NCBI GenBank assembly: GCA_037143135.1
Contig: JBAWZH010000001.1
Coordinates: 9,553-73,552 of the forward strand
Length of the DNA: 64,000 nucleotides
From: a bacterium
Lineage (GTDB): Bacteria; Verrucomicrobiota; Kiritimatiellia; CAIKKV01; CAITUY01
Direction: 5' to 3'
Shown here: in pieces, positions 44,871 to 63,987 of the stretch
Layout: every line of letters begins with the position of its first letter
Numbering within the stretch: position 1 is the first letter of the stretch
Notes under the pieces: generated by a model
The model's input: only the letters and a program-made list of their open reading frames with translations
The model's database searches: none
What the model was told of the DNA's origin: nothing
Made by a program: the position numbers and the translations under genes

Positions 44871-45040
44871 TAGGTTTCCCCTCCCAGTCTGAACGTCCGA
44901 AGATCGCAGGGCCCTTCGACGAATCAGCCAAAACAGTCCTGAAAAGAATATTTAAGGTACCAGTAGCTTTTCATTATTATTATGTCAATACCCATCAGTG
45001 AAGCGCCATCAAAAAAAGCTACCGCTAGGCAGAGAAAGAA

Positions 45041-45065
45041 GCCCGGATCAGAAAAAGATCCGGGC
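45041..45065 (-). terminator. Rho-independent terminator candidate downstream of 45085..45420
   Basis: GCCCGGATC / GATCCGGGC form a 9-bp stem with a 7-nt loop. On the minus strand it is followed by TTCTTTCTCT. Confidence 0.4.
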
Positions 45066-45084
45066 AAGGAAAAAGAAGTAAGAA

Positions 45085-45420
45085 TCAGGCTATCTGGAGT
45101 TCAGCTTCGTCTTCTTGAATAATCACTGGCTCAAGATTCCTGGTATATTCTCTGGCTTCCACCTCGACATGGCATATGCCGCCATTCGCCCGCCATACGG
45201 CCTGCTCTATTCGCTTAATAATCCAACTTGCATCCTCAAACTCGTAGAGCGTGCCCATGGATGACGCGTGGAGCAATCTTCTGCGCCCGTATGCCGGCTT
45301 CATAAAGCCAAAGTCATACTTCTTAAAGCACCATTCCACCATACAGGCGGAGATGATGCTCTTTGTCCTGAGCGCGTTGTAGTTGCCAATCGTTACCCTC
45401 AATTCGCATAACCTCTCCAT
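45085..45420 (-). CDS. Hypothetical protein
   Basis: 111-aa ORF with GGAGACTGAA upstream on the minus strand. Confidence 0.45.
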   Translation of the reverse strand: MERLCELRVTIGNYNALRTKSIISACMVEWCFKKYDFGFMKPAYGRRRLLHASSMGTLYEFEDASWIIKRIEQAVWRANGGICHVEVEAREYTRNLEPVIIQEDEAELQIA

Positions 45421-45491
45421 TTCAGTCTCCTTCCGATAAAAAGGGCGGACCCTTTGTTGGTGAGCCCTCCCTCATGGTTTGCCGTCAATGT

Positions 45492-47036: not shown

Positions 47037-47064
47037 TCCTATTCTTTTCCTTTCATGATTTCAG

Positions 47065-47388
47065 TTATTCAGCCCCACTGGCGGCTTTTGCCAATGTTTC
47101 GCGGATCAGTTTGAAATCCGTGTCCGCGTAGCGGTGCGGGATGTCATTGAGCCGCCTCTGTGCATGCTCAAGGGCATGTATAAGTTCACGAATCAAATCC
47201 GAGGCGCGATTCTTGGGAAGGTGTCGAGCTATGCCGTCCGACAGGTCAACCCTGACCATCTTCCCCCGGTATTGAACGTCAAACACCGTCGCGATGGACG
47301 CCGGATCCCGCTGAATGGCCAGCGCCTTGCGCGCCGCCTCCATGGGGGTCCTAGCATCTACATCTATTTCCCAACATACACGGATCAT
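47065..47388 (-). CDS. Hypothetical protein
   Basis: 107-aa ORF. Its start overlaps the upstream gene's stop. Confidence 0.45.
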   Translation of the reverse strand: MIRVCWEIDVDARTPMEAARKALAIQRDPASIATVFDVQYRGKMVRVDLSDGIARHLPKNRASDLIRELIHALEHAQRRLNDIPHRYADTDFKLIRETLAKAASGAE

Positions 47389-47612
47389 CGGTACACCTCC
47401 GGGGTTAAATCGTCATGCCAGCCTTCCAATGTAATCAGCGGGTGATAATCAATGGACTCAAGATCGAGGTCGTCGATCTTGGCCACTTCCGCCTGTGCCG
47501 CCAAAACAGCAGCCGAAACGGAATCCGCCTCCACTTGAGCCAGGTATGTGTCGGTCCCAAAACCATCAGCCACATAGTCTGGCCGTAACAAAAGCACTGT
47601 ATATTTCTTCAT
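47385..47612 (-). CDS. Hypothetical protein
   Basis: 75-aa ORF in the operon string. Confidence 0.4.
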   Translation of the reverse strand: MKKYTVLLLRPDYVADGFGTDTYLAQVEADSVSAAVLAAQAEVAKIDDLDLESIDYHPLITLEGWHDDLTPEVYR

Positions 47613-47625
47613 GTCTTGCCTCTCA

Positions 47626-47910
47626 TCATGTTGTTTGTCCTTTTATTGGATCGAACCACGGCACAATCTGCCCAATGGCTTCCGGATCGCTGTTGCTAAT
47701 GGTGAAATCCCCATAGAGGACGCCGTCGTAGTACAGCAGATCGCCGACGAACTTCAGAAAATGCCAATCCTCGTCAGCCAGTTTCACCCGGTAGGTAGAC
47801 AGATAGGTGACGTGAAGTCCTCCGATTGCCAATAGCGGCCCATCGGATCCCCAGTCATTCATCTGCTCCTCCGGATTCTTACGCCCGTGATACAGCTTGA
47901 TTGTCAGCAT
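47626..47910 (-). CDS. Hypothetical protein
   Basis: 94-aa ORF that overlaps the upstream gene by 7 nt. Confidence 0.4.
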   Translation of the reverse strand: MLTIKLYHGRKNPEEQMNDWGSDGPLLAIGGLHVTYLSTYRVKLADEDWHFLKFVGDLLYYDGVLYGDFTISNSDPEAIGQIVPWFDPIKGQTT

Positions 47911-48368
47911 GACAGCATTCCCTCCCCAGCGCTAAAGTCCCTTGTTTCCCAGTGGGTGCCACTATGCTTGCCGTACGCCCCCACATAAACTTCGGTATCG
48001 GTGATGGTGAGGTGCATACAGTCAACACGCGTCACACTGTCATCCTCGATGGCGAACAACCGTTCGGCCTCCTCATGCCCGATTCTGGTTGCTGTTCCGC
48101 CATCTAGCCCTTCCCGCAGTCCCTCGACGTCATCCACCCAATCCGGTAGATAATTGAGGAATTGTACGCGCGGACCGGGCCCGGTCTTTACCGAGTACCA
48201 CCGGCCGCCTGTGTCCATTATCTTTAATTGCCGCCGCACCATCTCAACTACGCACTCTTCAGCCTTCGTCCACTGAAAAACCAAATACCGTGTGTCCTCC
48301 ATGGAATTCCCTGTAGCTGGCGCCTCGGCGATGTAATAGCCTTCTTTCAATTTATTTTTCATGCTCAT
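47904..48368 (-). CDS. Hypothetical protein
   Basis: 154-aa ORF. Confidence 0.45.
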   Translation of the reverse strand: MSMKNKLKEGYYIAEAPATGNSMEDTRYLVFQWTKAEECVVEMVRRQLKIMDTGGRWYSVKTGPGPRVQFLNYLPDWVDDVEGLREGLDGGTATRIGHEEAERLFAIEDDSVTRVDCMHLTITDTEVYVGAYGKHSGTHWETRDFSAGEGMLSC

Positions 48369-48418
48369 GATTCCTTCCCGGAAACCCGGCCTTGTTTGAG
48401 GCCTGGCTCCATTACTTG

Positions 48419-48703
48419 TTATGCTGCTTTCTCCTTCATGAGCCCTGCTAGTGCATCTGCGACCCTTTGCAGGTCATCAGCCGCTGTCTGCATGGCTTTC
48501 ACCGCATTGGTGATTTGTTCCGTATCGGAAGCGTTGACGTCATAGATGTCGTGAATCTCCTGGGCAATGAACTGGGCCAGGGTGTCGCCACCCATCCTGT
48601 TCTCCCGGGGTTCCGACGCTTCCTTGTCCCAATACTCCAGGATGAAGGCTTCGGGATAAACCGATGCCGCGCTGGAGATCAGTTGATTCAATGTCATTCT
48701 CAC
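48419..48703 (-). CDS. Hypothetical protein
   Basis: 94-aa ORF. Confidence 0.4.
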   Translation of the reverse strand: MRMTLNQLISSAASVYPEAFILEYWDKEASEPRENRMGGDTLAQFIAQEIHDIYDVNASDTEQITNAVKAMQTAADDLQRVADALAGLMKEKAA

Positions 48704-48769
48704 TCCTTAATAGAAAGGCCCGCTCGACCAAAATAGGCAAAGCGGGCTGGTTGTTTTGATGTTTGTTAA

Positions 48770-49483
48770 CTATGCCGCGAAACCGGGTAGCTCCTGTTGC
48801 CCGTTACGGATCACCACATCAGGAACGGCGTCCGGGATCACATCGGGAATGGCCTCTTGGCTTGTCGCGGAAACTTGCCCCGCCAACAGCCCGGCCATCC
48901 TGCCGAAATAATCCAGTCCATTCATCCTGAGTTGAATCCGGCACATGTTCACGCACCGGATATCCATGTCGGTTCCGTAGAGCCTGAGCTTGCCGGTCCC
49001 CCAGCGTCCCAACGCCTGATGTACAACTTTGGCGAAGGATAGGAGCATGACTCCCGACCCGACCGCCGGATCACACACCGTGACAACGCCTTTCTCTTCA
49101 ACCAGTTGCTTGAATGTTTCCTGGTCAAATTGCATGCGCGCCATCATTTCGGCGATTGGCTCTGGAGTGAAGAACTGTCCGGAACGCACTGAGTTGACGT
49201 CCAGCCGCATGAAGAGTTCCCCCAGGATATCCCGGAATGGATCTTGTTCAACGGCGTCAACGTACAATCCCAGCAACCGGCTAAATTCTGCACCCTCGGC
49301 CCCGCTATACCGATCCAGGCACTGCTTGAACCCAGCAGGATCCTTCACGGCATCGAGAAATGCCCACATGGCTTCGAGCCAATTCCGGTAAAGGTCATAC
49401 GAATGCATATGACCAAACACAGGATTATTTTCAAAGCTACGGGCAAGCTCCTCGAACGCCGATCGCGTTACTGCGCTACCCAT
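48770..49483 (-). CDS. N6-DNA-methyltransferase-like SAM-binding protein lacking catalytic motif IV
   Basis: SGQFFTPEPIAEMMARM (motif X), VCDPAVGSGVMLLSF (motif I), LYGTDMD (motif II/III). No (D/N)PP(Y/F) follows before the stop. Confidence 0.55.
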   Translation of the reverse strand: MGSAVTRSAFEELARSFENNPVFGHMHSYDLYRNWLEAMWAFLDAVKDPAGFKQCLDRYSGAEGAEFSRLLGLYVDAVEQDPFRDILGELFMRLDVNSVRSGQFFTPEPIAEMMARMQFDQETFKQLVEEKGVVTVCDPAVGSGVMLLSFAKVVHQALGRWGTGKLRLYGTDMDIRCVNMCRIQLRMNGLDYFGRMAGLLAGQVSATSQEAIPDVIPDAVPDVVIRNGQQELPGFAA

Positions 49484-49531
49484 TCTTTTCCCGCCTTTCC
49501 AGCTTTACGCGATTGCATCGATAATCTGATG

Positions 49532-49786
49532 TCATGCATGTTTCATGTCCTCCTTTCGCTCCAGGTACCGGCGTTCCCAGTCTAGGCATTCCTGACGGGA
49601 AGGCGCAGTGAAGAGGGGTTGCCCCTTCATGTCCTTGACCCGCCATGACTGCTTGACGTTATCGAACTCGATGCGGGTCGCCCGGCTGATCTTGAGTCGG
49701 CCCAGGCAGGCGAGATCAATGACCTCGCTATAGGTGCCCCGAATCATGCCTTTGGGTGTGAAGATGAGTGAAGCCACCGCATTCAT
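49532..49786 (-). CDS. Hypothetical protein
   Basis: 84-aa ORF with a 4-nt overlap to the upstream gene. Confidence 0.4.
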   Translation of the reverse strand: MNAVASLIFTPKGMIRGTYSEVIDLACLGRLKISRATRIEFDNVKQSWRVKDMKGQPLFTAPSRQECLDWERRYLERKEDMKHA

Positions 49787-49980
49787 TGTCCCACCTTCTG
49801 TTCCTGGCGTTGTGTGTTGCGGATGAAGTAGTCCGCCTTCTTGGTTTTCCGGCCTGTCACCCCCAGCGCTTTCTCCAGAAAGGCTGTTGCCTTTTCACAG
49901 TCCGCGCCCTGAAACCCCATGGCCTCAATGCGAATGGTGCCGTCCGGCGCCACCACCACTTCAATGGTTTTCTGTGTCAT
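49783..49980 (-). CDS. DUF2997-like small protein
   Basis: MTQKTIEVVVAPDGTIRIEAMGFQGADCEKATAFLEKALG resembles DUF2997. The internal ATG at 49980 overlaps the upstream stop (ATGA). The ORF-track start 50151 would overlap the neighbouring gene by 175 nt. Confidence 0.5.
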   Translation of the reverse strand: MTQKTIEVVVAPDGTIRIEAMGFQGADCEKATAFLEKALGVTGRKTKKADYFIRNTQRQEQKVGQ

Positions 49981-50363
49981 TGGCGGGGCCCTCCTGAAAG
50001 AAGCACTTTGATGCTTCCATTCTTGAGACCTTGCCGCGTGACCATGTAGCCTTTGCGGGTGGCTTCCATGGCGGTTTTCCACACGCCATAAAGCTGGAGC
50101 AGTTTTCCGTAGTTTGCTCCGACTTCCTTTTCCACATGGCCGTCCCACCAATCGGTGGTAAGACCATAGGTGCCGTCGGGCTGCCGGTTGACGGCAATGT
50201 CATAGGGCCCTTTGAGCACAATAATGTGCTCACCAATATGGCGGTTGGCGCCATACCCCCTTGCTTCGATTCCCTGCCTGAGTGAAAGGCCTATCTCCTC
50301 ACAGGCCTTGCGTAGCGCCTCAATGTCCTTGATTTGTGTCGTTATCGTTGTGAAATGACTCAC
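49977..50363 (-). CDS. DUF1257-like protein
   Basis: VSHFTTITTQIKDIEALRKACEEIGL resembles the DUF1257 N-terminus. GTG 50363 has AAAGGAGAA 7 nt upstream; the ORF-track start is 50447. Confidence 0.55.
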   Translation of the reverse strand: MSHFTTITTQIKDIEALRKACEEIGLSLRQGIEARGYGANRHIGEHIIVLKGPYDIAVNRQPDGTYGLTTDWWDGHVEKEVGANYGKLLQLYGVWKTAMEATRKGYMVTRQGLKNGSIKVLLSGGPRQ

Positions 50364-50443
50364 TTTGGTTCTCCTTTTATTAATGAAAAAGCCCACGCCC
50401 CGGTAAAGGGCAGTGGGCCTTATTGTTTGCTGTAGGTATTGGA

Positions 50444-51517
50444 TCAACCGGCTTTCATCATGGGCGCTTCATCCTGGCGTTCCACGAAACCGGGTTCTGC
50501 CAGAGGGGCGGTCGCGATATGGAGCTTTCTGTGGCCCAACTGGCCAAACTGCTCCACAAGTTGACGGTTATCCTGCCGGGTCATCTCCCGCGCTGTATCC
50601 GCCAGTGACTGCAACCCCGTCTGGAGTTTGCCCCGGTAGAACGCGCTGTCCCGGTATTGTTCAGCCGGCCGGGTCAGGAATTCCTGCCTCACCCGGTTCA
50701 ACTGTGCCTCAAGCTCAACGTCGCCGACAAAGTTCAAAGATTTGAACTCATCAATGAACTTCACCAGCCGGTTGAGCGTTTTCTGGTGTACCCCGGTCTT
50801 TCCGGACTTCATGCTATCCAGCATTTCCTCGCAGAGTTTTGCTGTCTGCTCCCGCAGGGATGCCACACAATCCGAGACAAAGCCCTCCACACCCTTGTGG
50901 ATTTGTTCGGCTGCCTCCCGGACCGCCTGGTCCCTGGCATTGATGATATCCTGCTGTTCCCCAAGGCTGATCTGATCCATCGTGAACCCATCCGGCACAC
51001 TGATCTGGAAGAGTTGGGTCGTGAACCCAAAGGACCGCTCCATCCTTTCCGGTGTGGGGAAGGCTTCCTCGATCTTTTCGACCAATCTTTCCGGGTTGCC
51101 GCCGAGTCGCCCTGCGGCTTCCCGCCATTCGGCAAGACCCAGTGCGCGCATTTCGGCGTACCGGCCCAGGAAAACATCCTTTTCAGCCATGAATTCCTGT
51201 TCCAGTTTCGCTAGCTTGCCCATGGTTTCCTCCAGCCGGGTATTGGGCAGAAAATGCCCGAGTCCGTTAAGGAATGGAAACGTACACGTATCCACCAGCG
51301 CATGGGTTCGGCTCTCAATCAGGGCAAAGGCCTGCAATGATCCCCGTGGAATCAGGTTCTTATGCCCCAGGCTGAAAAGCCGCTTTTCCACGCTCTCCGG
51401 ATCCAGACCCAGATCCTCAGCGGTCAGTTTCTTGGTAGCCCGCCAGTAGCGAACCGATACATTCAAAAGCACGCCTTTGCGGGTGAGTACGTCCAATATA
51501 TGATTATTATCCTGCAT
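50444..51517 (-). CDS. Conserved mobile-element protein, possibly DUF3150-like
   Basis: 357-aa ORF. The N-terminus LLNVSVRYWRATKKLTAEDLGLD is reminiscent of DUF3150. The family name is recalled from memory and not verified. Confidence 0.45.
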   Translation of the reverse strand: MQDNNHILDVLTRKGVLLNVSVRYWRATKKLTAEDLGLDPESVEKRLFSLGHKNLIPRGSLQAFALIESRTHALVDTCTFPFLNGLGHFLPNTRLEETMGKLAKLEQEFMAEKDVFLGRYAEMRALGLAEWREAAGRLGGNPERLVEKIEEAFPTPERMERSFGFTTQLFQISVPDGFTMDQISLGEQQDIINARDQAVREAAEQIHKGVEGFVSDCVASLREQTAKLCEEMLDSMKSGKTGVHQKTLNRLVKFIDEFKSLNFVGDVELEAQLNRVRQEFLTRPAEQYRDSAFYRGKLQTGLQSLADTAREMTRQDNRQLVEQFGQLGHRKLHIATAPLAEPGFVERQDEAPMMKAG

Positions 51518-51568
51518 TGTTATTCTCCTGTTTTGTGTTGTTTTCTTATCCTGCCAGCTTGTCCGCCA

Positions 51569-52243
51569 TCAGGGCGTCAGTCGGCATTTTGTTTTCATAC
51601 TGTTCGATTTCATCTCTGCCGGGGTCGCCATCCTGAGCCTTACGGTTCGAGCCAAGGCAACACCCATAACACTCCGGGCACCTGCTTCACGCAGAACCCT
51701 CGCGCATTCCCGCATTGTGGCCCCAGAGGTCAGCACATCATCCACCAGGATGACATGACACCCTTCCACCGCTAACTTGTCGGATACTGCGTAAAGACCG
51801 GTCACATTGGCCTTTCGTTCCTTCATACCCGCACACTGATGCTGTTTCTTGCCCTTGGGGCGCAATTGCACGAGCAGTGTGTCCAAGTGAACGTTCACCC
51901 GGCGGCCCAGATGCCGATAGATGCTTTCTGCCAACATTTCCGGAGCGCCGTGTCCATAAGCGTTGAACAGGTATTGCACCGGTTCAGGCTCAGCGGGCAC
52001 ATGCGTAACCACATAGGACACATCATTCCCAAGCCAGCGCTCCAGCCGTTCTGCAATCATGACCCCAAATTGGTCTATGATCTCAGTGGCCCGCCGCTTG
52101 GCCAGGATGACAGCCCTGCTCCAATCAGAATGTTGGTGTTCAACAGCCTGATGGCGGGGGTAATACACACCAAAAGCATGTATCCAACCTGAATCCACTA
52201 TCTCTCTTGGAACTAAATGCAGAAAACCAAACCGGTTTTCCAT
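51569..52243 (-). CDS. ComF-like phosphoribosyltransferase-domain protein
   Basis: PRPP-binding loop HVILVDDVLTSGATMRECARVL. Confidence 0.7.
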   Translation of the reverse strand: MENRFGFLHLVPREIVDSGWIHAFGVYYPRHQAVEHQHSDWSRAVILAKRRATEIIDQFGVMIAERLERWLGNDVSYVVTHVPAEPEPVQYLFNAYGHGAPEMLAESIYRHLGRRVNVHLDTLLVQLRPKGKKQHQCAGMKERKANVTGLYAVSDKLAVEGCHVILVDDVLTSGATMRECARVLREAGARSVMGVALARTVRLRMATPAEMKSNSMKTKCRLTP

Positions 52244-52421
52244 ATAACCTTCCTTTCAATGAAAAAAGCGGCCCTGTCATGGGGACCGCCCGTTACTGTC
52301 TGATCCACCGACCCCTCTACAACAGAATCCTGCCACCAGGGCAGAGCTCCGCCATAAAAGGGTGTCGGTGGGTTATTATTCTTCAATCAACCGCATTGCA
52401 CGGTTGCGATTCATGCGCGGT

Positions 52422-52904
52422 TCAGTCGAACTCGCATAGGCCTGATTCACGCATGGACAGAAATTCCCGGCTGACGGTCGCCATGTTGTCGCCGTGCTTT
52501 CGCCCGACGATGACATGATCCAGCACCTTGATGCCGAGAATCTGACCACCCTGAATCATCTGTTTGGTCAACTTGACGTCTTCCGCGCTCGGGGAGGGAT
52601 CGCCGGAGGGATGGTTGTGCACGAGTATGACGGCCGACGCGCTTTCGCTGATCGCCCGCCGAAACACCTCTCGCGCATGAACGAGGCAGGAATCCACCAC
52701 GCCCATGCCAATCATCCGTTTGTCCAATAACCGGTTCCTTGTGTTCAAGGCCAGTACCACAAAGGTCTCCTGGCCCAGATCACGCATTTCCCGGCATTCT
52801 ACCCAGGTATCTTCCGGGGTGCGGATCATGGTGGTTCCGTCCCTCGCCAAAGGCAACTCGCACATGAACGAGATTGCCCGGTATTCAGGTTTTTTCATCA
52901 CCAC
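52422..52904 (-). CDS. radC: RadC-like JAB/MPN-domain protein
   Basis: JAMM motif AVILVHNHPSGDPSPSAEDVKLT. Confidence 0.8.
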   Translation of the reverse strand: MVMKKPEYRAISFMCELPLARDGTTMIRTPEDTWVECREMRDLGQETFVVLALNTRNRLLDKRMIGMGVVDSCLVHAREVFRRAISESASAVILVHNHPSGDPSPSAEDVKLTKQMIQGGQILGIKVLDHVIVGRKHGDNMATVSREFLSMRESGLCEFD

Positions 52905-53269
52905 TCCGATCCGTTTCCATCACCTGAAGCTTCAACAATTCCCTGTAACTCCAGCACTTCAAGGCTGCGTTCATCCACAATAACCTCTGTGCTGTACTTG
53001 GTCTGCCCATCCTTGGTCTCGAACTTGGACGTGTTAACCCGGCCTTCCAGCCCGATCAACACACCTTTCGGATCCCCGGTCAGCAGGCTGATGGCGAGTT
53101 CGGACGGACTGAACACCACGCAAGGCACAAAGGCCTTGTGAGGCTTTTTGTCCTTTCCCCCATGACCATTCTTTGTGGCCAGCGTAAACCTGAGAACCTT
53201 CTTCTCATTACCATTCAATGTGCCGCTGCGCGGCAGGGTTCCAACTCCTATGAACTTATTCATGATCAT
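52898..53269 (-). CDS. ssb: Single-stranded DNA-binding protein (OB fold)
   Basis: MNKFIGVGTLPRSGTLNGNEKKVLRFTLA ... FVPCVVFS ... LIGLEGRVNTSKFETKDGQTKYSTEVIV follows the SSB OB-fold pattern. Confidence 0.7.
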   Translation of the reverse strand: MIMNKFIGVGTLPRSGTLNGNEKKVLRFTLATKNGHGGKDKKPHKAFVPCVVFSPSELAISLLTGDPKGVLIGLEGRVNTSKFETKDGQTKYSTEVIVDERSLEVLELQGIVEASGDGNGSEW

Positions 53270-57898: not shown

Positions 57899-58219
57899 GT
57901 GGTGTCATGTCAGATGAAGAAAAACGATGAAGGGATCCAGAAGTTAATCGCAGAATTGCGTTTGTTATACGGAAAAGTTCGGGGGGAACGCGAGTTCCTC
58001 GCGCTTAAAAAGTCAGAGCTCCGGCCGGGTGATGAAATCTCGTTCTTTGGTTTCATACAAGCGCGGGAGCAGTTGGCGTGTGAGACATCATTACTGACCG
58101 GCCATGCGATCCTGGTCCAGGAGATCATTGCCAGGAAGAAGATCGTGGTTCCTGCGGCTGATCAGCGTTTTCTAAAGGAGATCAACGCCCTTTCTTGGAT
58201 GTATATATCCCGCATCTAA
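57899..58219 (+). CDS. Hypothetical protein
   Basis: 106-aa ORF with helical composition. Confidence 0.35.
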   Translation: MVSCQMKKNDEGIQKLIAELRLLYGKVRGEREFLALKKSELRPGDEISFFGFIQAREQLACETSLLTGHAILVQEIIARKKIVVPAADQRFLKEINALSWMYISRI

Positions 58220-58299
58220 CCCGGCGGGTTTCTGCCAATGCAAAGATATATAAAGGGGCTTTGTGTCTTATCACTGTACTACTCAGGAATGACAACAAC

Positions 58300-58887
58300 A
58301 TGGCAAACTATTCATTTATGACCGATCAAGGTTGGCGGGTTACGGAATACCGTCCATTCAGCCCAAGCTATGCGGTTTTGCATACGCCGGGAATGAAGGA
58401 GGAACGCAAATCCGCCTATGCAACTGCATTGTATTCTCATAGTGAGACAACCAATCTGGCGCCGGATGAAAACTCATCAGGGGACTTGCTCAAAACTCTC
58501 ACAGGCCAACAATTGAAGTTCGATTATTTCTCGGAGGATGTGCTGAAACAATTGCTCAAAGAGCGGGTGACTATACGCGACAGGAACCGTGCCGCGATCC
58601 AAGGCCGGCTTTCGGATCTTTCGGGCGAAATATACGGAGCAGTAATACTCAAAACACCCGATGGGGATAAACGCAGGCAGGGCTTGGAAAAGACCAAGAT
58701 GGATCTTGAAAAACAACTTCGCGACGAAGATGTTACGCTCTGGAAGGATGCCGTCGAACTTAGACGGGAACTCATTATTGCTGCCAAGAAATATGAAGGC
58801 ACAAAACTCAGGACCGGACTATTTGCTATGCCGCTGACTCAGGATGACCAACATAAAATCGAAGGATACGGTAACTTTTCAGGATAG
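58300..58887 (+). CDS. Hypothetical protein with coiled-coil C-terminal half
   Basis: ATG 58300 chosen because ORF-track start 58195 overlaps the previous ORF. Its 3' end overlaps the ATPase gene by 44 nt. Confidence 0.4.
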   Translation: MANYSFMTDQGWRVTEYRPFSPSYAVLHTPGMKEERKSAYATALYSHSETTNLAPDENSSGDLLKTLTGQQLKFDYFSEDVLKQLLKERVTIRDRNRAAIQGRLSDLSGEIYGAVILKTPDGDKRRQGLEKTKMDLEKQLRDEDVTLWKDAVELRRELIIAAKKYEGTKLRTGLFAMPLTQDDQHKIEGYGNFSG

Positions 58888-60514
58888 ATGCATCGCGCTT
58901 CGCCCAATTCTGGGGAAACAGGTCGATCAGATATGGCAATGCTACCTTTTTCAGGATGAAGATGGAAAATTCGAACTAGAGCAACAGCTTGAGCTCATGG
59001 TCAATTCGGCACTGAATACCGATGTGCAGGATAAAGCCCCAGTCTTTCCGCCGCCAACCGCCGAGGTTGCCGCCGGGGAGATTGCCCTCGGTGATGTCGA
59101 ATATAATCATAAGCCATATTGTCCCTTCGGGCTCAGGAAAGACGAACTGATGAAGCACGTCGGGCTCTTTGGTCAAACCGGTACCGGTAAAACCAATGCC
59201 GCCCATCTTCTGGCCTCCCAAATTCACAAACTGGGCACTCCGATCTGGGTGCTTGAATTCAAAAGGGGTTGGAGGGAATTGCGAGCATTGCCGGAATTCC
59301 AGGATTTATTGGTATTTACCGTCGGGCGTAATGACATTGCCCCCATTTCTTTCAACCCGCTCATCCCGGTGGAGGGCGTGGACCCGCATACATGGATAAA
59401 GAAGATCTCCCACACAATTTCCAACGCGTTCTTTCTCGGGCAGGGAGTTCTCTATTTGCTGGAGGTTGTTTTGGCAAAGCTATACGAGGAATATGGGATC
59501 TTTGAGGGTAAACCGGAGCGATATCCCACATTTCGGGATGTCTTGCGAATGCTGCAGAATTACCCGATCCGAAGTGGTAGGGAAACCCTTTGGCTGTCCT
59601 CAGCGCTAAGGGCGATACATTCGCTGTGTTTTGGCCAGATGGACCGGATTGTTAATGCCCAGGGAAATGACAGTCTCAAATCCCTGATCAATCATTCTGT
59701 CGTTTTTGAAATGGACTCCCTTGGCCATGAGGACAAGGTTTTCTTCACCGAATGTGTCATGCTCTGGGCCTATGAATATTACCAGGCGAGGCCGGTTAGG
59801 GAACAACTCCAACTGGTGATGTTCCTTGAGGAGGCCCATAACATCGCCGGGCGACAGGGACGGGATGATTCCGGGTCTAAGATCATTGTGGATCAGATGT
59901 TCCGTCAGAGCCGTGAATATGGGATTGGATTGGTCATCATAGACCAGATGCCCTCCGCCATCTCGCGTACGGCCCTGGCCAATGTGCATTGCCTCATCGC
60001 TATGGGTGTAAAAGAGAAGGCGGATGCCGTGGCTTTGACAGGTTCCATGCTGTTGGATCGGGAGCAGGGCGACATGCTCGGGCGACTCAGTCTGGGATCC
60101 GCGATTGTTAAGTTGCAGCGAAAGGGGCTGATTGATCCCTTTATCTTGAAGACCCCCTTGATGCCAGTGAAGAAGGGAACTATGTCGGATGATATGATCC
60201 GGGATATGATGCAGGTATATGTCCGGCCCGTTGAACATTCTGGAGAGGCATCCCATTCGACTTCTCAGCCGAAACTCTCGGAATCAGAAATGGCACTATT
60301 GGTGGATGTGGCGATCATGCCCGACTCCGGCGTGGTGGCGCGATATACAAGATGCAAACTGTCCGGCCGACAGGGCGACAAGGCCAAACGATCCCTGATA
60401 GAAATGGGATTCATCGAGGAAGTTGAACAGCTTACCCCAAGGGGGCGTTCAAAAATGATTCGGCTTACCGAAAAAGGAACGAGTTTTCTGGAAGCCAGGC
60501 CATCTGAAATATAA
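58844..60514 (+). CDS. HerA/FtsK-superfamily (DUF87-like) P-loop ATPase with C-terminal winged-helix
   Basis: VGLFGQTGTGKTNAAHLLA (Walker A), LVMFLEEAHNIAG (Walker B), and C-terminal wHTH-like LSGRQGDKAKRSLIEMGFIEEVEQLTPRGRSKMIRLTEKG. Confidence 0.7.
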   Translation: MTNIKSKDTVTFQDRCIALRPILGKQVDQIWQCYLFQDEDGKFELEQQLELMVNSALNTDVQDKAPVFPPPTAEVAAGEIALGDVEYNHKPYCPFGLRKDELMKHVGLFGQTGTGKTNAAHLLASQIHKLGTPIWVLEFKRGWRELRALPEFQDLLVFTVGRNDIAPISFNPLIPVEGVDPHTWIKKISHTISNAFFLGQGVLYLLEVVLAKLYEEYGIFEGKPERYPTFRDVLRMLQNYPIRSGRETLWLSSALRAIHSLCFGQMDRIVNAQGNDSLKSLINHSVVFEMDSLGHEDKVFFTECVMLWAYEYYQARPVREQLQLVMFLEEAHNIAGRQGRDDSGSKIIVDQMFRQSREYGIGLVIIDQMPSAISRTALANVHCLIAMGVKEKADAVALTGSMLLDREQGDMLGRLSLGSAIVKLQRKGLIDPFILKTPLMPVKKGTMSDDMIRDMMQVYVRPVEHSGEASHSTSQPKLSESEMALLVDVAIMPDSGVVARYTRCKLSGRQGDKAKRSLIEMGFIEEVEQLTPRGRSKMIRLTEKGTSFLEARPSEI

Positions 60515-60698
60515 CAGGCCGGCGAAGAGAGAGTGCGCCGTTTACGTCGAGGTGTTAATGCCTTCACATCAGGATTCATCATTGTTGTCACGCAACAACA
60601 ACAACAAAAACTTTTTAAAGAAAAGAAGAAGAAGAGAAGAGGTTCACTGCTCACATTACTGGATGATCTGACTCATCTGACGCGTTCAGCGCACTCTC

Positions 60699-61796
60699 TT
60701 ACTGGAACCGGGCGGAAAAGACGGCGCTCAGTTCCTCGGGTGAGACTAATGGCTCAATCCTGTTTGTAAAGGTCCGATCTACTTTGGCGCTGACCAGCAG
60801 GATCAGGCCAAGGGATGCCAAGTATCCCAGGGTTGAATAGAATTGTGTGTAACCGTAGGGTTCCTCCCCGCAAGCCCGACTCAGGGTGCTATAATGCTGA
60901 TACACCGACTTCACCAGTTTTGAAGACTCTTCCATGCTTGCCTTAAGAATGAGGAGCGCCTTGTCATTGGTACCCACCAGGACATCTTTCACCACATCTT
61001 CCCGTGCCTTGGCAAAACACTCATCCACGGTTGGAGCCTCCCCGGTGGAACAGTAAAGGAGGGCCTTGATGGCGACCCTGACATCGCCGTTTGTATTCTT
61101 GGCCGTCATGGCGGCGATTTCTTCCAACAACCCAGGAGCAACCCTCTTTAGGCCTGTCTCTGCCCGGTCTTTCAGGATGTCTAGGATCTCACTGGCTGAG
61201 TAGGTTCTGAATGATATGACTTCTGGCTGGAGTGAGGAGCGAGTGCTCTCATCCAGTTGCTTAAGGTAGCGGTGGTTATTGCTGAGGAGGACCAGGGAAT
61301 AGCGGTTGGGGCTTCGGCTCAGGAAGTACAGGATATCCCGCTTGAGGTCATTTTCGACCAGCATGTCGGCCTCGTCGAGGACGATGACCGCCGGGCCGGG
61401 GATTTCCTTCTCGAATCGTTCGCATAGCTCGGAATAGGCGTACCCCCGCGGCTTGGCTTTCAAGATGGCGGCCAATGCCTTAAAGCTGGAATTATGGATC
61501 CGGCAATTCACGCCAAAGAAGGGGAGTTTTAGCTTTTCAGAAAAGGCTTTTTCAAGGTACCGAAATGTCAGGGTTTTCCCGCAACCCCTGGCACCGAATA
61601 CCATCATGTTTCGGGCAATCCCGCTACCCTGATAGCGGACCAGGCAGTCCACAATCCGTTTAACTTCAGGCCGAATGACCGGCCGGTCCGGGATGTGGTC
61701 GAAGCTGAAAACCCGGAAGTCCTTTACACTGGATGCGACGCGTTCAGCCTCCTGACGCGACTGCTCAATGTATGCCAATAACTCTTCCTGACCCAT
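60699..61796 (-). CDS. Orc1/Cdc6-type AAA+ protein with C-terminal winged helix
   Basis: FDHIPDRPVIRPEVKRIVDCL, MMVFGARGCGKTLTFRYL (Walker A), AVIVLDEADML (Walker B), ISFRTYSASEILDILKDRA, TNGDVRVAIKALL, and the wH-like YTQFYSTLGYLASLGLILLV. Confidence 0.8.
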   Translation of the reverse strand: MGQEELLAYIEQSRQEAERVASSVKDFRVFSFDHIPDRPVIRPEVKRIVDCLVRYQGSGIARNMMVFGARGCGKTLTFRYLEKAFSEKLKLPFFGVNCRIHNSSFKALAAILKAKPRGYAYSELCERFEKEIPGPAVIVLDEADMLVENDLKRDILYFLSRSPNRYSLVLLSNNHRYLKQLDESTRSSLQPEVISFRTYSASEILDILKDRAETGLKRVAPGLLEEIAAMTAKNTNGDVRVAIKALLYCSTGEAPTVDECFAKAREDVVKDVLVGTNDKALLILKASMEESSKLVKSVYQHYSTLSRACGEEPYGYTQFYSTLGYLASLGLILLVSAKVDRTFTNRIEPLVSPEELSAVFSARFQ

Positions 61797-62145
61797 TCTC
61801 TTTTGACGTATTCACCTCACTCTTCAAGATGAATCGAAGTTAATAAACCTTTCGCTTTCTTGCTGAAATGGTGGCCAAAATAATTAATTTCCATACTTCT
61901 CATTATCCCCCCTCTCTCCTCAAAATTAATTAATCTCATTACAAATCAACAACTTACACAACAAAATCAATTCACATCATAAAATCAATACTCGTCGTCA
62001 CACGTCGTCGTCCCGTCGTCACGCGAACGCCAAAGCGACCGCGCACTCCCTTACTTCCACACCCTATCTTTCATCTCCCTGCCCCCAGAAATCATTACCA
62101 ATAACATCCCCAGATTCCCATCATTACACATCATAACTTCAATAC

Positions 62146-62294
62146 TCGTCGTCGTCCGTCGTCGTCCGTCGTCGTCCGTCCGTTCGTCCGTCCGTTCGTC
62201 CGTCCGTTCGTCCGTCGTCCGTTCGTCCGTCCGTTCGTCCGTCCGTTCGTCCGTCGTTCGTCCGTCCGTCGTCCGTCGTCCGTCCGTCGTCCGT
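62146..62294. repeat. Tandem 10-mer/12-mer repeat tract (CGTCGTCCGT x3, then CCGTTCGTCCGT x3 + CGT + x3, then degenerate copies)
   Basis: Read directly from 62146-62294. A related CTCGTCGTC...CGTCGTCGTC...CGTCGTC patch lies at about 61990-62020, and TCAATACTCGTCGTC occurs at about 61985 and about 62139. Confidence 0.85.
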
Positions 62295-62448
62295 TACTAT
62301 AAATATGGCACCCGCAGGTGCCCTTTACTTTCGTCTCCGTTATATCATCCATCCGTAGGCGTATCCGAGGCCTCCATCAGCGCGCCGTAGCGCGCCTATC
62401 TCCATTTGCCCAAAGTTGGCCCCGCCAACCTGATATTTGGACAAGCTG

Positions 62449-62607
62449 TTATCCGCTAACAGCGATTCTTCCGCTTGCCTCCAATACCTCTCTTGCTCGA
62501 TTAACGAGCCAAAGATTATCTGTTTTCTTCACTGAAGCCGCTTCGGCTTCCTGAATCATATCTTTGACAAGCTTCAAGAGCTCTTTGAGTCGCTTTGTGT
62601 CTTCCAT
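62449..62607 (-). CDS. Small helical hypothetical protein (52 aa)
   Basis: ATG at 62607 has AAAGGAGGTG 8 nt upstream, which favours this start over ORF-track start 62640. A hairpin GTTGGC-GGG-GCCAAC followed by TTT lies just downstream (62415-62429). Confidence 0.4.
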   Translation of the reverse strand: MEDTKRLKELLKLVKDMIQEAEAASVKKTDNLWLVNRAREVLEASGRIAVSG

Positions 62608-62640
62608 TCTCTGAGCACCTCCTTTTACTGATTTTTCCAT

Positions 62641-63289
62641 GCCGGAGGCCGCGGGCTTCGATAGATAAATTTTTCGGTTACCGCAGTGACCGAAAGATTT
62701 ACTGAGCGAAGCCTGCTTCGTTCGGGAAAAATCAGGGAGGTGCGAAGCCAGAAATCACACAATGCGGCAAACGAGCGCCGCTTGTCTTTTCGGCTTCCTT
62801 GCCTTCCTGGTTCCCTTATAGATAGTTGCCCGCGCGCGTATTCATAACCGCCCGCAGGCGGCTAACGTTAGGGGTGGGCGAAGCCCCCTCGCATTAGCGT
62901 GCCGCAGCACGCCTAGATTTCGTCGTCAGTCGTCATATGCGCGCCGCAGCGCGTCTATCATTTCCCCTTCGGTCGAAGACCGAAATCCGGGTCCCGTTCC
63001 CTGACACGGGCTCACAATGCCATTCAAATGACCGTGTCATTTCATAAGCGCCCTCTGGAGCCAGATTCAGAGCGGTACCTCGAATCTGGTGACGAGCGGC
63101 AGCGGATCACCGAACGGACCGAAAGCCATTGGGTTGAGGTTGAGTGTCCGTTACCCTCCCACGAAACCTCCCCTTGGGTTTCGTGTCCGGAGGACAATTC
63201 GTCCCCCATCTTCCCTTCATCCATCTCTCGCTATATCCCTAAACAAGACAACGCCCCGACGGGGGCCCGTCAAGGCGTCGCTTGTTTCC
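62641..63289 (-). ncRNA. Candidate large structured RNA or structured leader (strand uncertain)
   Basis: A roughly 650-nt stretch without a credible ORF contains at least 10 stable hairpins, several with conserved CGCA loops on different stems. See findings. No Rfam family recognised by eye. Confidence 0.3.
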
Positions 63290-63811
63290 TTACCAGCTTA
63301 TGCAAGGGTAGGGCTTCAGCCCCTCTTTCTGTTTCCTGATTCCCAATTCAAAGAAACTGTACACAGAATCCAACCACGATACCGCCCACCTGAACTCGTC
63401 AATTTCGCTGGTTTTTATCCAGCCACCTTCCGGGACTGTATTCCTGATAACCTGCAAAATGGCTTCTGCCGTTGTTTTCTGGTTCTGAAGCACCTCCTGC
63501 TGCTGACTTTCACTTTCAAAGGGTTCATTTCTGGCCACACTTACCAGATACCGGCATCCAATTTCGTTTAGCCGTTCAAAGTTTCCCTCAAAGTCATATT
63601 CATCCGTAGACCCCTCGGCCCAATACTTTTCGGGGAATAGCACTCTCAAGATATGCTCCTCAAGAACCATACTGATACTTGTTCTCAAATACCCATCTTC
63701 GCCAGCATCAATAGCCCATCCGGTAAACTGAGCTTTCTGCTCCTCCTCTGTCTTTGTATCCCATTCGAGATAAACATCCGTTCCCATTTTTTCATTCAAA
63801 CCTCCTTTCAA
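63290..63811 (-). CDS. Hypothetical acidic protein
   Basis: 173-aa ORF with protein-like composition. TTG 63811 overlaps the upstream stop (TTGA). The alternative in-frame ATG at 63787 lies 13 nt after GGAGG. Confidence 0.45.
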   Translation of the reverse strand: MKGGLNEKMGTDVYLEWDTKTEEEQKAQFTGWAIDAGEDGYLRTSISMVLEEHILRVLFPEKYWAEGSTDEYDFEGNFERLNEIGCRYLVSVARNEPFESESQQQEVLQNQKTTAEAILQVIRNTVPEGGWIKTSEIDEFRWAVSWLDSVYSFFELGIRKQKEGLKPYPCISW

Positions 63812-63987
63812 TATTTATGCCAGGCCATCAGCCGATTGCATCTCAAGCAGAGATACACTGCCAGCCCTTCTTTATCCTGAACCCGGATTTGGCCCTTGGG
63901 TTCACCACATACAGCGCAAGCTATCACCGGTTTATTCGGTTTACCGATAAACTGCCGTGAAGCCCCTTCTGTCCTATTTTCCTCCAT
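63808..63987 (-). CDS. Unlisted 59-aa zinc-ribbon ORF
   Basis: My own translation of the minus strand gives MEENRTEGASRQFIGKPNKPVIACAVCGEPKGQIRVQDKEGLAVYLCLRCNRLMAWHKY, with CxxC ... CxxC. It falls below the track's length cutoff. Confidence 0.35.
   Translation of the reverse strand: MEENRTEGASRQFIGKPNKPVIACAVCGEPKGQIRVQDKEGLAVYLCLRCNRLMAWHKY

Follow-up and report, generated by a model that had tools for sequence, protein, structure and literature searches.

Layout of the locus

The window (the whole stretch of 64,000 nt analysed here) contains, at 61800-63290, what is probably the origin of an integrative element of PVC bacteria together with its replication-control sequences; the element carries a gene for an Orc1/Cdc6-like initiator. 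The minus strand is the sense strand of that gene, orc1, and of all the genes flanking the region. Read along this strand, the region passes from a terminator through a conserved element (CR1), a cluster of hairpins, a gene for a 52-aa protein whose leader conceals its ribosome-binding site, a further pair of hairpins, a polymorphic tandem array, and iteron-like boxes with an AT-rich stretch, to orc1. The features are as follows:

63240-63292, minus strand: intrinsic terminator (terminator scan) of the gene for a 165-aa protein (63290-63787, minus strand), a long GC-rich stem and then a U-rich tail
62960-63210, minus strand: CR1, a conserved non-coding structured element of about 250 nt, from alignments
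63061-63089, minus strand: hairpin S3 of CR1, CCAGAUUC-GAG-GUACCG-CUC-U-GAAUCUGG
62968-62984, minus strand: terminal hairpin of CR1, UUCGGUC-UUC-GACCGAA, loop UNC on the minus strand and GNA on the plus strand
62939-62954, minus strand: hairpin H1, loop cUGCGg, (A)CGCGC-UGCG-GCGCG(C)
62897-62912, minus strand: hairpin H2, loop cUGCGg, type A, GCGUGC-UGCG-GCACGC
62876-62886, minus strand: degenerate type B hairpin, GGGC-UUC-GCCC
62848-62861, minus strand: hairpin H3, loop cUGCGg, type C, CCGCC-UGCG-GGCGG, extended to 8 pairs through a minus-strand G.U
62608-62750, minus strand: structured 5' leader of the 52-aa gene (consensus fold), with 62672-62695 as its apex
62449-62607, minus strand: 52-aa gene, with AGGAGG 9 nt before its ATG
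62406-62443, minus strand: terminator-like hairpin 3' of the small gene, UUGUCCAAA...GUUGGC-GGG-GCCAAC-UUUGGGCAA
62380-62395, minus strand: hairpin H5, loop cUACGg, type D, GCGCGC-UACG-GCGCGC
62307-62322, minus strand: hairpin H6, loop cUGCGg, type E, GGCACC-UGCG-GGUGCC
62149-62295, no strand assigned: tandem array (CGTC/CGTT)n, on the minus strand (GACG/GAAC)n, period 4 or 12 and about 38 copies by Tandem Repeats Finder
61800-62148, no strand assigned: origin-like stretch, with a box, direct repeats and AT-rich DNA just upstream of orc1
about 61955-62000 and 62115-62152, no strand assigned: two direct repeats of about 35 bp, GACGACGAGTATTGA..TTATGATGTG
about 62010-62050, no strand assigned: iteron-like box, TGCGCGGTC-N6-GCGTTCGCGTGACGACG
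60699-61796, minus strand: orc1/cdc6-like gene, 365 aa, with Pfam domains AAA_22, Cdc6_lid and Cdc6_C

The product of orc1 scores 128 bits against TIGR02928, below the cut-off of 181. Its homologues lie in genomes of Kiritimatiellae and Sedimentisphaerales, that is, in bacterial PVC genomes, and the setting is not archaeal; among PVC bacteria, such elements are borne by Kiritimatiellae, Verrucomicrobiota and Victivallales. A metagenome scan with the protein returned 28 loci, only one of which (L009) shares the upstream region. In Orc1 relatives of at most 88% identity, the upstream region is different or the upstream DNA is too short to judge. One ENA contig (L001) is identical to the window except for 27 nt within the tandem array. 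Nothing was found in IMG/VR with the Orc1 protein or with a 31-nt CR1 probe, and the pattern of the iteron-like box gave 47 matches there, almost all of them chance occurrences inside GC-rich coding DNA; the only one that looks related, in a tailed phage (L079), comes without UGCG hairpins.

Searches of the neighbouring genes with Pfam, PHROGs, NCBIfam and PADLOC turned up no domain of the polymerase, primase, Rep or RNA-binding kind. The element does encode an SSB. In PADLOC a 556-aa protein drew only generic, partial matches to the ATPases HerA, DndH and mad8, while the Orc1-like protein had nothing significant (mad8, E = 7e-4) and the partner proteins had no matches, so that the locus does not correspond to known anti-phage defence systems. 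Bacterial mobile elements replicating with an Orc1/Cdc6-like initiator are nearly unstudied: a search of the literature for bacterial Orc1 elements found nothing specific, and no paper on such elements in PVC bacteria. The locus supplies a concrete, conserved map of a control region, consisting of CR1, a small gene with its ribosome-binding site masked by the leader, iteron-like boxes, and an array of hairpins whose loops are fixed and whose stems drift.

As judged from the sequences of relatives, 62300-63290 is made up of separable modules, any of which may be there or missing, doubled or in another order from one element to the next. The small gene and its leader are absent from L038 and L042 and occur in two copies in L009 and L050; L009 lacks the tandem array and has its second small-gene module there instead. 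In L050 the hairpin cluster lies apart from CR1. The parts are permuted in L021, where the hairpin array is on the strand opposite orc1, upstream of other genes, and the order from array to AT-rich stretch to downstream gene is still kept. L040 has a different candidate initiator and no Orc1; part of CR1 occurs there, as do boxes and a triloop-type hairpin flanked by GATAG. In all variants the minus strand is rich in G and poor in C (GC skew +0.15 to +0.36).

Conserved structures and the origin-like stretch

The terminator of the 165-aa gene is kept in the window and in L009, L038, L042 and L050, and in every sequence it contains three G.U pairs, which pair only on the minus strand. CR1, behind it, is a new structured element. 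It is regarded as non-coding because relatives differ by frame-breaking indels, and RNAalifold gives it -61.1 kcal/mol on the minus strand against -50.6 on the plus strand. Two stems picked out in a preliminary description of this DNA, at 63061-63089 and 62968-62984, belong to CR1 and are real, covarying structures. The outer helix of S3 is CCAGATTC/GAATCTGG in the window, CCTGCTTG/CAAGCAGG in L010, GGCTTC/GAAGCC in L038 and GCCCCTTC/GAAGGGGC in L050, and its apical GAG-GTNCCG-CTC is invariant. The terminal hairpin of CR1 is TTTGACC-TCC-GGTCAAA in L038, with three pairs changed on both sides, and its loop is TAC in L009 and L042. The comparison with Rfam proposed earlier led to no family: neither CR1 nor anything else in the whole window or in eight related loci matched Rfam 15 at gathering score, and 61700-63500, searched with E-values up to 10, gave matches at chance level only, led by mir-95 with 20.7 bits where the threshold is 67.5. 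Genes for tRNA or tmRNA are absent.

The 52-aa gene differs from its counterpart in L009 at 23 codons (10 synonymous) and from that in L050 at 40 (17 synonymous). Relatives of the protein are rare, only about five in 1.8 billion representative proteins. It is predicted to form a two-helix hairpin (helices at residues 2-27 and 29-44, mean pLDDT 74), and a Foldseek comparison of the model with the PDB found no match with E below 1, Rop not being among the results. The suggestion that the region might serve as a leader for this ORF turns out to be right for a part of it, the conserved leader, whose consensus fold from five copies comprises 51 pairs, 9 of them with changes on both sides. Within the fold, an anti-Shine-Dalgarno sequence, CACCUCC (62736-62742), pairs with the Shine-Dalgarno sequence, GGAGGUG (62616-62622); both are changed in the second copy of L009. 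The hairpin 3' of the small gene is kept after every copy of that gene in L009 and L050 and includes a U.G pair that forms only on the minus strand.

The region does lie, as first supposed, in an origin-like setting beside orc1/cdc6. From its sequence features I infer that 61800-62148 is a replication origin: as in iteron-type plasmid origins, an initiator gene (orc1) is preceded by direct repeats, each about 35 bp long, and by AT-rich DNA, here along with GTTCGCG boxes and a tandem array, all kept in relatives. The iteron-like box is found in L009, L010, L038, L040, L042, L049 and L050, in the same orientation as the hairpins. The tandem array looks like an expansion of the GACGACG part of the box.

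A family of UGCG hairpins

Six hairpins with CG(C/T)A loops were listed in the preliminary description, and the coordinates of all six are correct. Five of them, each a perfect hairpin, form a class; the one at 62672-62695 does not belong, since it forms the tip of the leader, where the orthologues have another, longer loop. Across the 64-kb window there are 90 perfect tetraloop hairpins with stems of at least 5 bp, and only the five (at 62307, 62380, 62848, 62897 and 62940) have CGCA or CGTA loops, or TGCG or TACG on the other strand. Positions 1-61000 contain 80 perfect tetraloop hairpins and none with such a loop. Perfect hairpins in 62300-63290 number 8, as compared to a mean of 1.0 and a maximum of 4 in 2000 dinucleotide shuffles, and those with CGCA or CGTA loops number 5, as compared to a mean of 0.011 and a maximum of 1. 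The folding energy of the same interval, a check also proposed earlier, is far below that of shuffled sequence (z = -10.3 on the minus strand and -13.8 on the plus strand).

The five hairpins in the window span 62307-62954, about 650 nt. On the minus strand they read c(UGCG)g or c(UACG)g on stems of 5-7 GC-rich pairs, and related elements, with 5-8 hairpins apiece, have the same types in the same orientation; one cluster is made up of three hairpins in a row. In five element variants, the loop is UGCG in 24 of 26 hairpins and UACG in the other 2, with a closing C-G pair in all 26. Related DNA amounting to 458 kb was scanned for c(UNCG)g hairpins with stems of 5 bp or more, and all of them have UGCG or UACG; UUCG is absent from the family throughout that DNA. 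Fixed U1, C3 and G4 with C-G closure and a freer second position make up the cUNCGg pattern of hyperstable RNA tetraloops, a pattern to which, by sequence, all 26 hairpins and those across the 458 kb conform.

The stems vary between relatives and continue to pair. The orthologue of H2 in L009 is GTGCGC-TGCG-GCGCAC, with two pairs changed on both sides, and the counterparts in L038 and L021 are GCGTGC-TACG-GCACGC and GCGTGC-TGCG-GCACGC. At the site of the degenerate type B hairpin, L009 has GGGGC-TGCG-GCCCC, L050 GGGGGC-TGCG-GCCCCC, L038 GGGGC-TGAT-GCCCC and L010 TGGGGC-TTC-GCCCCA. The outer pairs of H3 covary among its orthologues (GTCCGCC, TCCCGCC, CCCCGCC). A (G)GCGCGC-TGCG hairpin lies 3' of each small-gene module in L009 and L050, and the stem of H6 recurs with a TGCG loop in L042 and L050 and a TGCT loop in L009, the GACGACG motif always adjoining it. 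Through such changes on both sides, in orthologous and paralogous copies, the pairing is kept, which bears out the earlier view that these are selected structures and not chance palindromes. In the hairpin alignments, 91.4% of cells pair (53.4% in shuffles) and 65 have changes on both sides (25 in shuffles), and the covariation score comes to 0.86 against 0.20, a value reached by 0 of 500 shuffles, the sequences being few and related, so that these are not independent events. When the alignments are slid by 1-3 columns, only 32-53% of cells pair. Between orthologues there are paired substitutions and one paired insertion.

The preliminary description saw in the T-G pairs of two stems a sign of the plus strand. 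Of these two stems, however, one is the leader hairpin, not a member of the family, and among 25 family hairpins there are 8 G.U or U.G cells on the minus strand against 1 on the plus strand, counts that, coming from the same few related sequences, are likewise not independent. A looser scan for the first non-canonical pair beyond each stem gave 13 on the minus strand and 5 on the plus strand, of 30. The hairpins of an element all point the same way. They are conserved and covary in this fixed orientation, and a leader and a terminator of RNA type lie on the same strand.

Other regularities proposed for the hairpins proved less durable. The CAT-NN...CTA flanks (TAG...NNATG on the minus strand) amount to a weak tendency across the family, and the idea of pairing between the TAG and ATG flanks was dropped, none being possible. 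The short ATG frames 3' of the hairpins come without a Shine-Dalgarno sequence and are conserved in L009 in neither length nor sequence. The three copies of GCGAAGC, seen as possible mini-hairpins, are not conserved as such: the first makes up a single arm of a leader helix that covaries, another shows no conservation at all, and the last is a degenerate copy of the GGGGC hairpin, whose loop in L009 and L050 is UGCG. GGCACC-N4-GGTGCC was considered as a sigma-54 promoter, an idea dropped because the spacing is off by one. The class does not consist of intrinsic terminators either. Under the T-tail rule, only H6 passes on the minus strand, and H6 and H1 on the plus strand; the other members have no T-run, whereas the true terminators at 63248-63281 and 62415-62429 do have a U-tract.

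Possible roles of the hairpins

It is scarcely credible that the hairpins accumulated in a non-coding gap as mobile or selfish palindromes, whether akin to REP/BIME sequences or to miniature transposons, or as solitary CRISPR-like repeats. They are GC-rich and intergenic and sometimes carry a 5' flank, (G)ATAG, that recalls the GTAG of REP elements, but no copies occur in the other 61 kb of the window (1-61000), the flank is more loosely (T)AG, and nearly all copies in the 458 kb of related loci adjoin origin-like boxes, the exceptions (L022-L026) being single hairpins. The stems all differ within an element, unlike those of spread copies, and the same hairpin types occupy the same relative positions although the neighbouring 165-aa protein is only 45% identical. 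As for a CRISPR array, its spacers of about 30 nt could not be accommodated in the gaps here, which measure 3-50 nt. The preliminary description also considered one large structured non-coding RNA extending over 62300-63290, in which the hairpins would be peripheral helices. The very low minimum free energy of the minus strand, the conserved structures of CR1 and the leader, and a minus strand rich in G and poor in C in every variant all speak for such an RNA. This proposal is nonetheless very improbable, since the modules separate (L038, L042, L009, L050, L021), a protein-coding gene stands in the middle, the alignments contain no conserved long-range pairing between modules, and Rfam has no match. 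Hardly better in its prospects, and improbable as well, is the idea that the palindromes are ordinary double-stranded protein sites, bound by a regulator or by Orc1, with the hairpin never forming. Archaeal origin recognition boxes contain a dyad and adjoin orc1 genes, and here, as there, repeated dyads lie beside orc1/cdc6 and an AT-rich stretch; moreover, distant variants share certain stems unchanged, GGCACC and (G)GCGCGC among them, and the central CTGCGG is invariant and polar. The archaeal boxes, however, share one sequence, whereas the arms within one element here (GCGTGC, GGGGC, CCGCC, GCGCGC, GGCACC, GGCGCC) are wholly different, yet stay complementary, which on sequence grounds sets them apart from origin recognition boxes; the host is bacterial, too, and the initiator below the curated Orc1 cut-off. 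A sequence-specific protein would not accept all these arms, and positions that it does not recognise need no complementarity, let alone the paired substitutions and paired insertion found between orthologues. The GTTCGCG boxes are a much better candidate for sequence-specific binding.

A real possibility, if a less likely one than the RNA proposal set out below, is that the hairpins act as DNA, as structures on one strand of an unwound, displaced or extruded origin that are recognised by a primase, a helicase loader, Orc1 or a polymerase. This mode of action is known from the ssi signals of IncQ plasmids, the complementary-strand origin of G4 and the hairpin promoters of phage N4. On the minus strand the loop with its closing pair gives CTG or CTA, trinucleotides at which DnaG primases of bacteria start, and on the plus strand the triloop hairpins of the window, L010 and L040 are c(GNA)g, a DNA mini-hairpin known to be very stable. 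The hairpins are interleaved with iteron-like boxes, GACGACG repeats, the tandem array and the AT-rich stretch beside an initiator gene, share the orientation of the boxes, and accompany them, in the form of the GATAG-flanked triloop-type hairpin, even in L040 without Orc1. Still, the DNA tetraloops known to be unusually stable do not, as far as I am aware, include d(cTGCGg) or d(cCGCAg), whereas read as RNA the loops match a known stable class exactly. The tetraloops indicate the minus strand and the triloops the plus strand, so that no single DNA strand accounts for both, and the Orc1 relatives L002 and L004 (80-83% identity) lack such hairpins. The sites extend over about 650 nt, between transcribed modules and after each small gene, and are more numerous and more widely spaced than known priming signals. 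The origin signals ssiA/ssiB of RSF1010 and the G4 origin have GC-rich hairpins by iterons and an AT-rich stretch, and the cluster of three in a row has a parallel in G4. Known signals of this sort, however, come in sets of one to three with conserved sequences, and those of IncQ plasmids occupy both strands, whereas the 5-8 hairpins here have differing stems and keep to one strand. The promoters of the N4 virion RNA polymerase also have hairpins of 5-7 GC-rich bp with a small conserved loop and variable paired stems, but with 3-nt loops, a conserved start site and a dedicated polymerase, of which none was found in this element. Short hairpins with stems of 5-7 bp are known to extrude at physiological superhelicity, and in the N4 promoters, whose function is strand-specific and aided by SSB, non-conserved stem bases may vary if the hairpin is kept (PMC4496689). 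The short stems here could extrude similarly and enjoy a similar freedom, and the element has an SSB of its own; classical long-inverted-repeat cruciforms were dropped from consideration, the arms being too short, while extrusion of the N4 type might still take place. The more specific proposal, that these would be structure-specific DNA signals of a bacterial Orc1-type replicon, the fixed CTGCGG apex recruiting primase, helicase loader or Orc1, is unlikely. Were it true, this origin architecture would have no described counterpart in bacterial plasmids or archaeal origins, and action as DNA in general would show how an archaeal-type initiator is wired into the bacterial replication apparatus. 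A literature search on UGCG hairpins at origins found nothing specific.

I prefer, tentatively and with somewhat less than even confidence, the view that the hairpins are RNA in sense transcripts, where they would delimit and protect modules and would probably be read by a factor. I infer their action as RNA, and the role proposed for it, from the cUNCGg signature of the loops, the covariation, the wobble bias, the RNA features on the same strand, the polarity and the position at module joints, all of which support RNA reading. The joints in question are those after CR1, after each small-gene module and beside the iteron-like boxes, and the hairpins keep to them in the window, L009, L038, L042 and L050 though the modules vary in number and order. 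Formed in minus-strand (sense) RNA, the hairpins would fold fast and independently, preventing neighbouring structures from mispairing, and would shield the 3' ends of upstream segments from exonucleases. A factor of the element or the host may read them as well, as the near-invariant exposed G at loop position 2 suggests. That stability is the sole object of selection is doubtful because UUCG, which should then be common, is absent; a loop that is almost only UGCG and never UUCG suggests that recognition matters in addition to stability. Taken together, these actions would control the small protein, the expression of orc1 and any transcription that enters the origin. Several observations count against RNA action: neither strand folds nearly as poorly as shuffled sequence; repeats of DNA type (GACGACG, GTTCGCG boxes) immediately adjoin hairpins of types E and F in an origin-like setting; a terminator stands just ahead of CR1 and the first hairpin cluster, for which no promoter is obvious; no promoter of the sigma-70 type was found in 61700-63900; the triloop hairpins have the form of the stable DNA mini-hairpin on the plus strand; the covariation and wobble counts come from few, related sequences; and the lack of UUCG does not fit selection for stability alone.

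If they do act as RNA, the hairpins would illustrate cleanly, in a natural setting, how UGCG tetraloops can punctuate a regulatory transcript in a repeated and recognisable way. They have something in common with several known RNAs. CsrB and RsmZ, the sponge RNAs, also have many hairpins with unrelated stems and one short loop motif, but here the motif is UGCG rather than GGA, there is no known CsrA-like partner, and the hairpins are spread among genes and DNA repeats and not contained in one small RNA. The REP/BIME stabilisers of malEFG in E. coli likewise are stable GC-rich hairpins that follow a functional RNA segment, and as at the module joints here, could block 3' exonucleases and so set segment levels; REP sequences, in contrast, are dispersed in hundreds of copies with a conserved stem, and the present hairpins are confined to one locus. 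The closest resemblance in the loop itself is to the cUNCGg tetraloops of rRNA and many structured RNAs: every member of the family carries C(UGCG)G or C(UACG)G at the end of a short, GC-rich stem, with only the second loop base varying. What differs is that the hairpins, known here from DNA sequence, form an array of 5-8 per element within one non-coding region.

The mobile element and its control region

The orc1/cdc6-like gene encodes AAA+, lid and winged-helix domains and scores under the curated Orc1 cut-off. The named Orc1 homologues are bacterial, coming from Kiritimatiellae and Sedimentisphaerales genome bins, and related loci derive from Verrucomicrobiota and Victivallales bins. Judging from these homologues and from neighbouring genes for a HerA/FtsK-type ATPase with a small partner, an Mrr nuclease, a tyrosine integrase and SSB, the locus belongs to an integrative mobile element carried by PVC bacteria (Kiritimatiellae, Verrucomicrobiota, Victivallales), and not to an archaeal chromosome. 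The region between orc1 and the gene for a conserved 165-aa protein is laid out as follows.

Features of the control region, listed in minus-strand order; all flanking genes are read in that sense (window positions).
63240-63292 (-): terminator of the conserved 165-aa gene
62960-63210 (-): CR1, a conserved, non-coding structured element of ~250 nt
62848-62954 (-): hairpin cluster H1, H2, a degenerate GGGC-UUC-GCCC, and H3
62449-62750 (-): 140-nt leader and 52-aa gene
62406-62443 (-): terminator-like hairpin
next in order (-): hairpins H5 and H6
62149-62295 (- reading): (GACG/GAAC)n tandem array, (CGTC/CGTT)n on the plus strand
next in order: iteron-like box, two direct repeats of ~35 bp, AT-rich DNA
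60699-61796 (-): orc1

Over 11.1 kb the window and the ENA contig L001 differ only by 27 nt, which fall within the tandem array, and the related locus L009 is missing the array; the array is therefore either unstable in length or hard to assemble. The direct-repeat box TTCGCGGTC-N6-9-GCGTTCGCGTGTYGACGACG is kept in all variants, including L040, a locus without Orc1 (window ~62010-62050; L009 4700-4735; L042 6917-6950 and 7140-7175; L049 6470-6520 and 6650-6730), and it makes the best candidate for an initiator binding site.

The hairpin array and its neighbors

The preliminary description listed six hairpins with CG(C/T)A loops (UGCG or UACG on the minus strand), and all six are present, although the one at 62672-62695 belongs to the leader of the 52-aa gene and not to the class. 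Only five of the 90 perfect tetraloop hairpins in the 64-kb window (stem at least 5 bp) have a CGCA or CGTA loop (62307, 62380, 62848, 62897 and 62940), and 2000 dinucleotide shuffles of 62300-63290 give a mean of 0.011 and a maximum of 1, as against these five. The other 61 kb contain 80 perfect hairpins, none with either loop on either strand. Folding energy, which had been proposed as a check, is far lower than that of shuffled sequence on both strands (z = -10.3 minus, -13.8 plus).

Five variants supply 26 hairpins, of which 24 have a UGCG loop and two a UACG loop, always closed by C-G; UUCG or UCCG hairpins of this kind number zero across 458 kb of related sequence. Nearly all hairpins in those 458 kb adjoin GCGTTCGCG boxes, whose orientation they share. 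The TAG...NNATG flanks (originally read as CAT-NN...CTA) persist as a weak tendency across the family, nothing firmer.

Stem types of the hairpins.
Type A: GCGTGC / GTGCGC / GCGCGC; first in cluster
Type B: GGGG(G)C; second in cluster
Type C: (NN)CCGCC; third in cluster
Type D: (G)GCGCGC; after each small gene
Type E: GGCACC; adjoins GACGACG and boxes
Type F: (C)GGCGC(C); adjoins GACGACG and boxes

The stem types are orthologous and change by paired substitutions, among them GCGTGC:GCACGC to GTGCGC:GCGCAC and those in the outer pairs of type C (GT, TC, CC). With 25 hairpins aligned by loop, 91.4% of cells are paired (53.4% when shuffled) and 65 show changes on both sides (25 when shuffled), and none of 500 shuffles reaches the covariation score; the sequences are related and the events not independent, yet the trend is clear. 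Sliding the alignment by 1-3 columns lowers pairing to 32-53%.

Non-canonical cells form wobbles (G.U/U.G) on the minus strand eight times and on the plus strand once; a looser scan gives 13 versus 5 of 30. Pairs possible only on the minus strand also occur in three neighbors: the leader, the hairpin 3' of the small gene, and the terminator with its three invariant G.U pairs. The two T-G pairs once cited for the plus strand do not sustain that argument: one lies in the leader hairpin, which is no member of the class, the other at the outermost position of H1.

Within CR1, S3 (63061-63089) is a genuine hairpin whose stem covaries around an invariant apex, GAG-GUNCCG-CUC, and the hairpin at 62968-62984 covaries in the related locus L038. 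For the stem at 63160-63185 there is a competing pairing, GGGGAGGUU : AACCUC..CCC, and it is this alternative that a compensatory change in L050 backs. CR1 folds at -61.1 kcal/mol on the minus strand versus -50.6 on the plus, and frame-breaking indels between relatives show that it is not coding. L040 also has part of it.

In the leader, CACCUCC pairs with the Shine-Dalgarno sequence GGAGGUG of the 52-aa gene, and compensatory change is seen at nine leader pairs, the anti-SD:SD pairing in L009 copy 2 among them. The gene itself is probably genuine: its Shine-Dalgarno sequence is good, differing codons are synonymous in 10 of 23 and 17 of 40 cases (two comparisons with relatives), and its product is predicted to fold as a helical hairpin. 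In L009 and L050, where the module is duplicated, it comes as two paralogue types. Because public data contain extremely few members of the family and the module is absent from L038 and L042, both with UGCG/UACG hairpins, the protein cannot be an obligatory partner of the hairpins.

RNA or DNA

Taken one by one, the components are familiar: stable tetraloop hairpins, the furniture of an iteron-type origin, and a leader masking a ribosome-binding site. Their combination is new, in that the control region of Orc1-type elements of bacteria carries a conserved, polar array of UGCG hairpins whose stems drift. I found no literature description of such arrays or elements, and Rfam, suggested earlier as a test, holds no matching family, for CR1 or otherwise.

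I tentatively prefer, at somewhat short of an even chance, that the hairpins act as RNA in sense transcripts, because loop and closure match the cUNCGg signature exactly, because the minus strand bears devices that work at the RNA level (the terminator and the Shine-Dalgarno-masking leader), and because the hairpins sit at the joints between modules. That they are instead DNA hairpin signals at an origin is possible, if doubtful. The array is mixed with iteron-like boxes, GACGACG repeats and an AT-rich stretch; a scan of 61700-63900 gave no sigma-70-type promoter; CR1 lies behind a terminator; UUCG is absent, though equally good for stability; and the triloop hairpins are c(GNA)g on the plus strand. 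There is also precedent in the promoters of phage N4, where short hairpins of similar size can extrude and be read as DNA (PMC4496689).

Beside the preferred reading as RNA, plain duplex binding sites with no role for a hairpin seem unlikely, and the single large RNA across the region envisaged by the preliminary description quite improbable. Selfish palindromes are the least credible, with very little chance of being right.

Relatives and cargo

Orc1 is a poor handle for finding related loci, and the 165-aa gene a better one: loci whose Orc1 is 73-88% identical have a different upstream region or, on short contigs, too little upstream DNA to tell.

Related loci.
L009, L035, L036: found via Orc1 (94% identical), not the 165-aa gene; whole upstream region in common
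L038: 165-aa identity 80%; hairpins present, small gene absent
L042, L048: 165-aa identity 57%; hairpins present, small gene absent
L050: 165-aa identity 45%; hairpins present, two small-gene modules
L049: Victivallales; 2.3-kb non-coding region
L040: another gene takes the place of Orc1; boxes plus a single imperfect UUC-loop hairpin with GATAG flanks, without UGCG hairpins

All Orc1-bearing members of this list have UGCG or UACG hairpins, in one orientation, between the 165-aa gene and orc1. L010 (Orc1 78% identical) keeps CR1 and the boxes, together with the hairpins in triloop form; there, as in L040, GATAG-flanked hairpins have a UUC triloop in place of UGCG. In L021 (Orc1 49% identical), the array lies on the opposite strand, where genes for an HTH protein and a 206-aa protein follow downstream, and the succession of array, AT-rich stretch and gene is preserved. 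L049 has at 5250-6300 about 1 kb of non-coding sequence with about a dozen small hairpins (e.g., AGCC-GAAG-GCU, UGCC-AGAG-GCA), its sense strand very G-rich and C-poor (GC skew +0.36).

Searches of IMG/VR with the Orc1 protein and a 31-nt CR1 probe turned up none of the elements. A tailed-phage contig from that source (L079, 9950-10000) has a near-identical copy of the box, GTTCGCGGTCATCTGCGTTCGCGTGTTGAG, with no UGCG hairpins nearby, in an AT-rich non-coding gap upstream of genes for a CcdA-like protein and a large terminase.

PADLOC assigned the gene set to no known defence system. Positions 58195-61796 hold a conserved three-gene core, common in PVC bacteria and likewise matching no known defence system: the Orc1/Cdc6-like gene, a divergently oriented HerA/FtsK-type ATPase (best partial match, the CedD DNA translocase) and an overlapping partner of ~195-230 aa. 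Positions 1-45000 and 45000-53000 look like a defence or cargo island, with Hsp70-like, SNF2 helicase, ResIII/TnsA-like, KAP NTPase and QueC-like proteins. The 45-53 kb block (55% GC) encodes an AAA ATPase, an N6 methylase fragment, a DUF3150 protein and a phosphoribosyltransferase, and the ENA contig ends at window position 52867, coinciding with a shift in GC content. In a Kiritimatiellae relative (L002 and L003, 1326-3457), CBASS-like cargo (SMODS cyclase, patatin and E2-like protein) lies directly upstream of the Orc1 gene, replacing the hairpin region.
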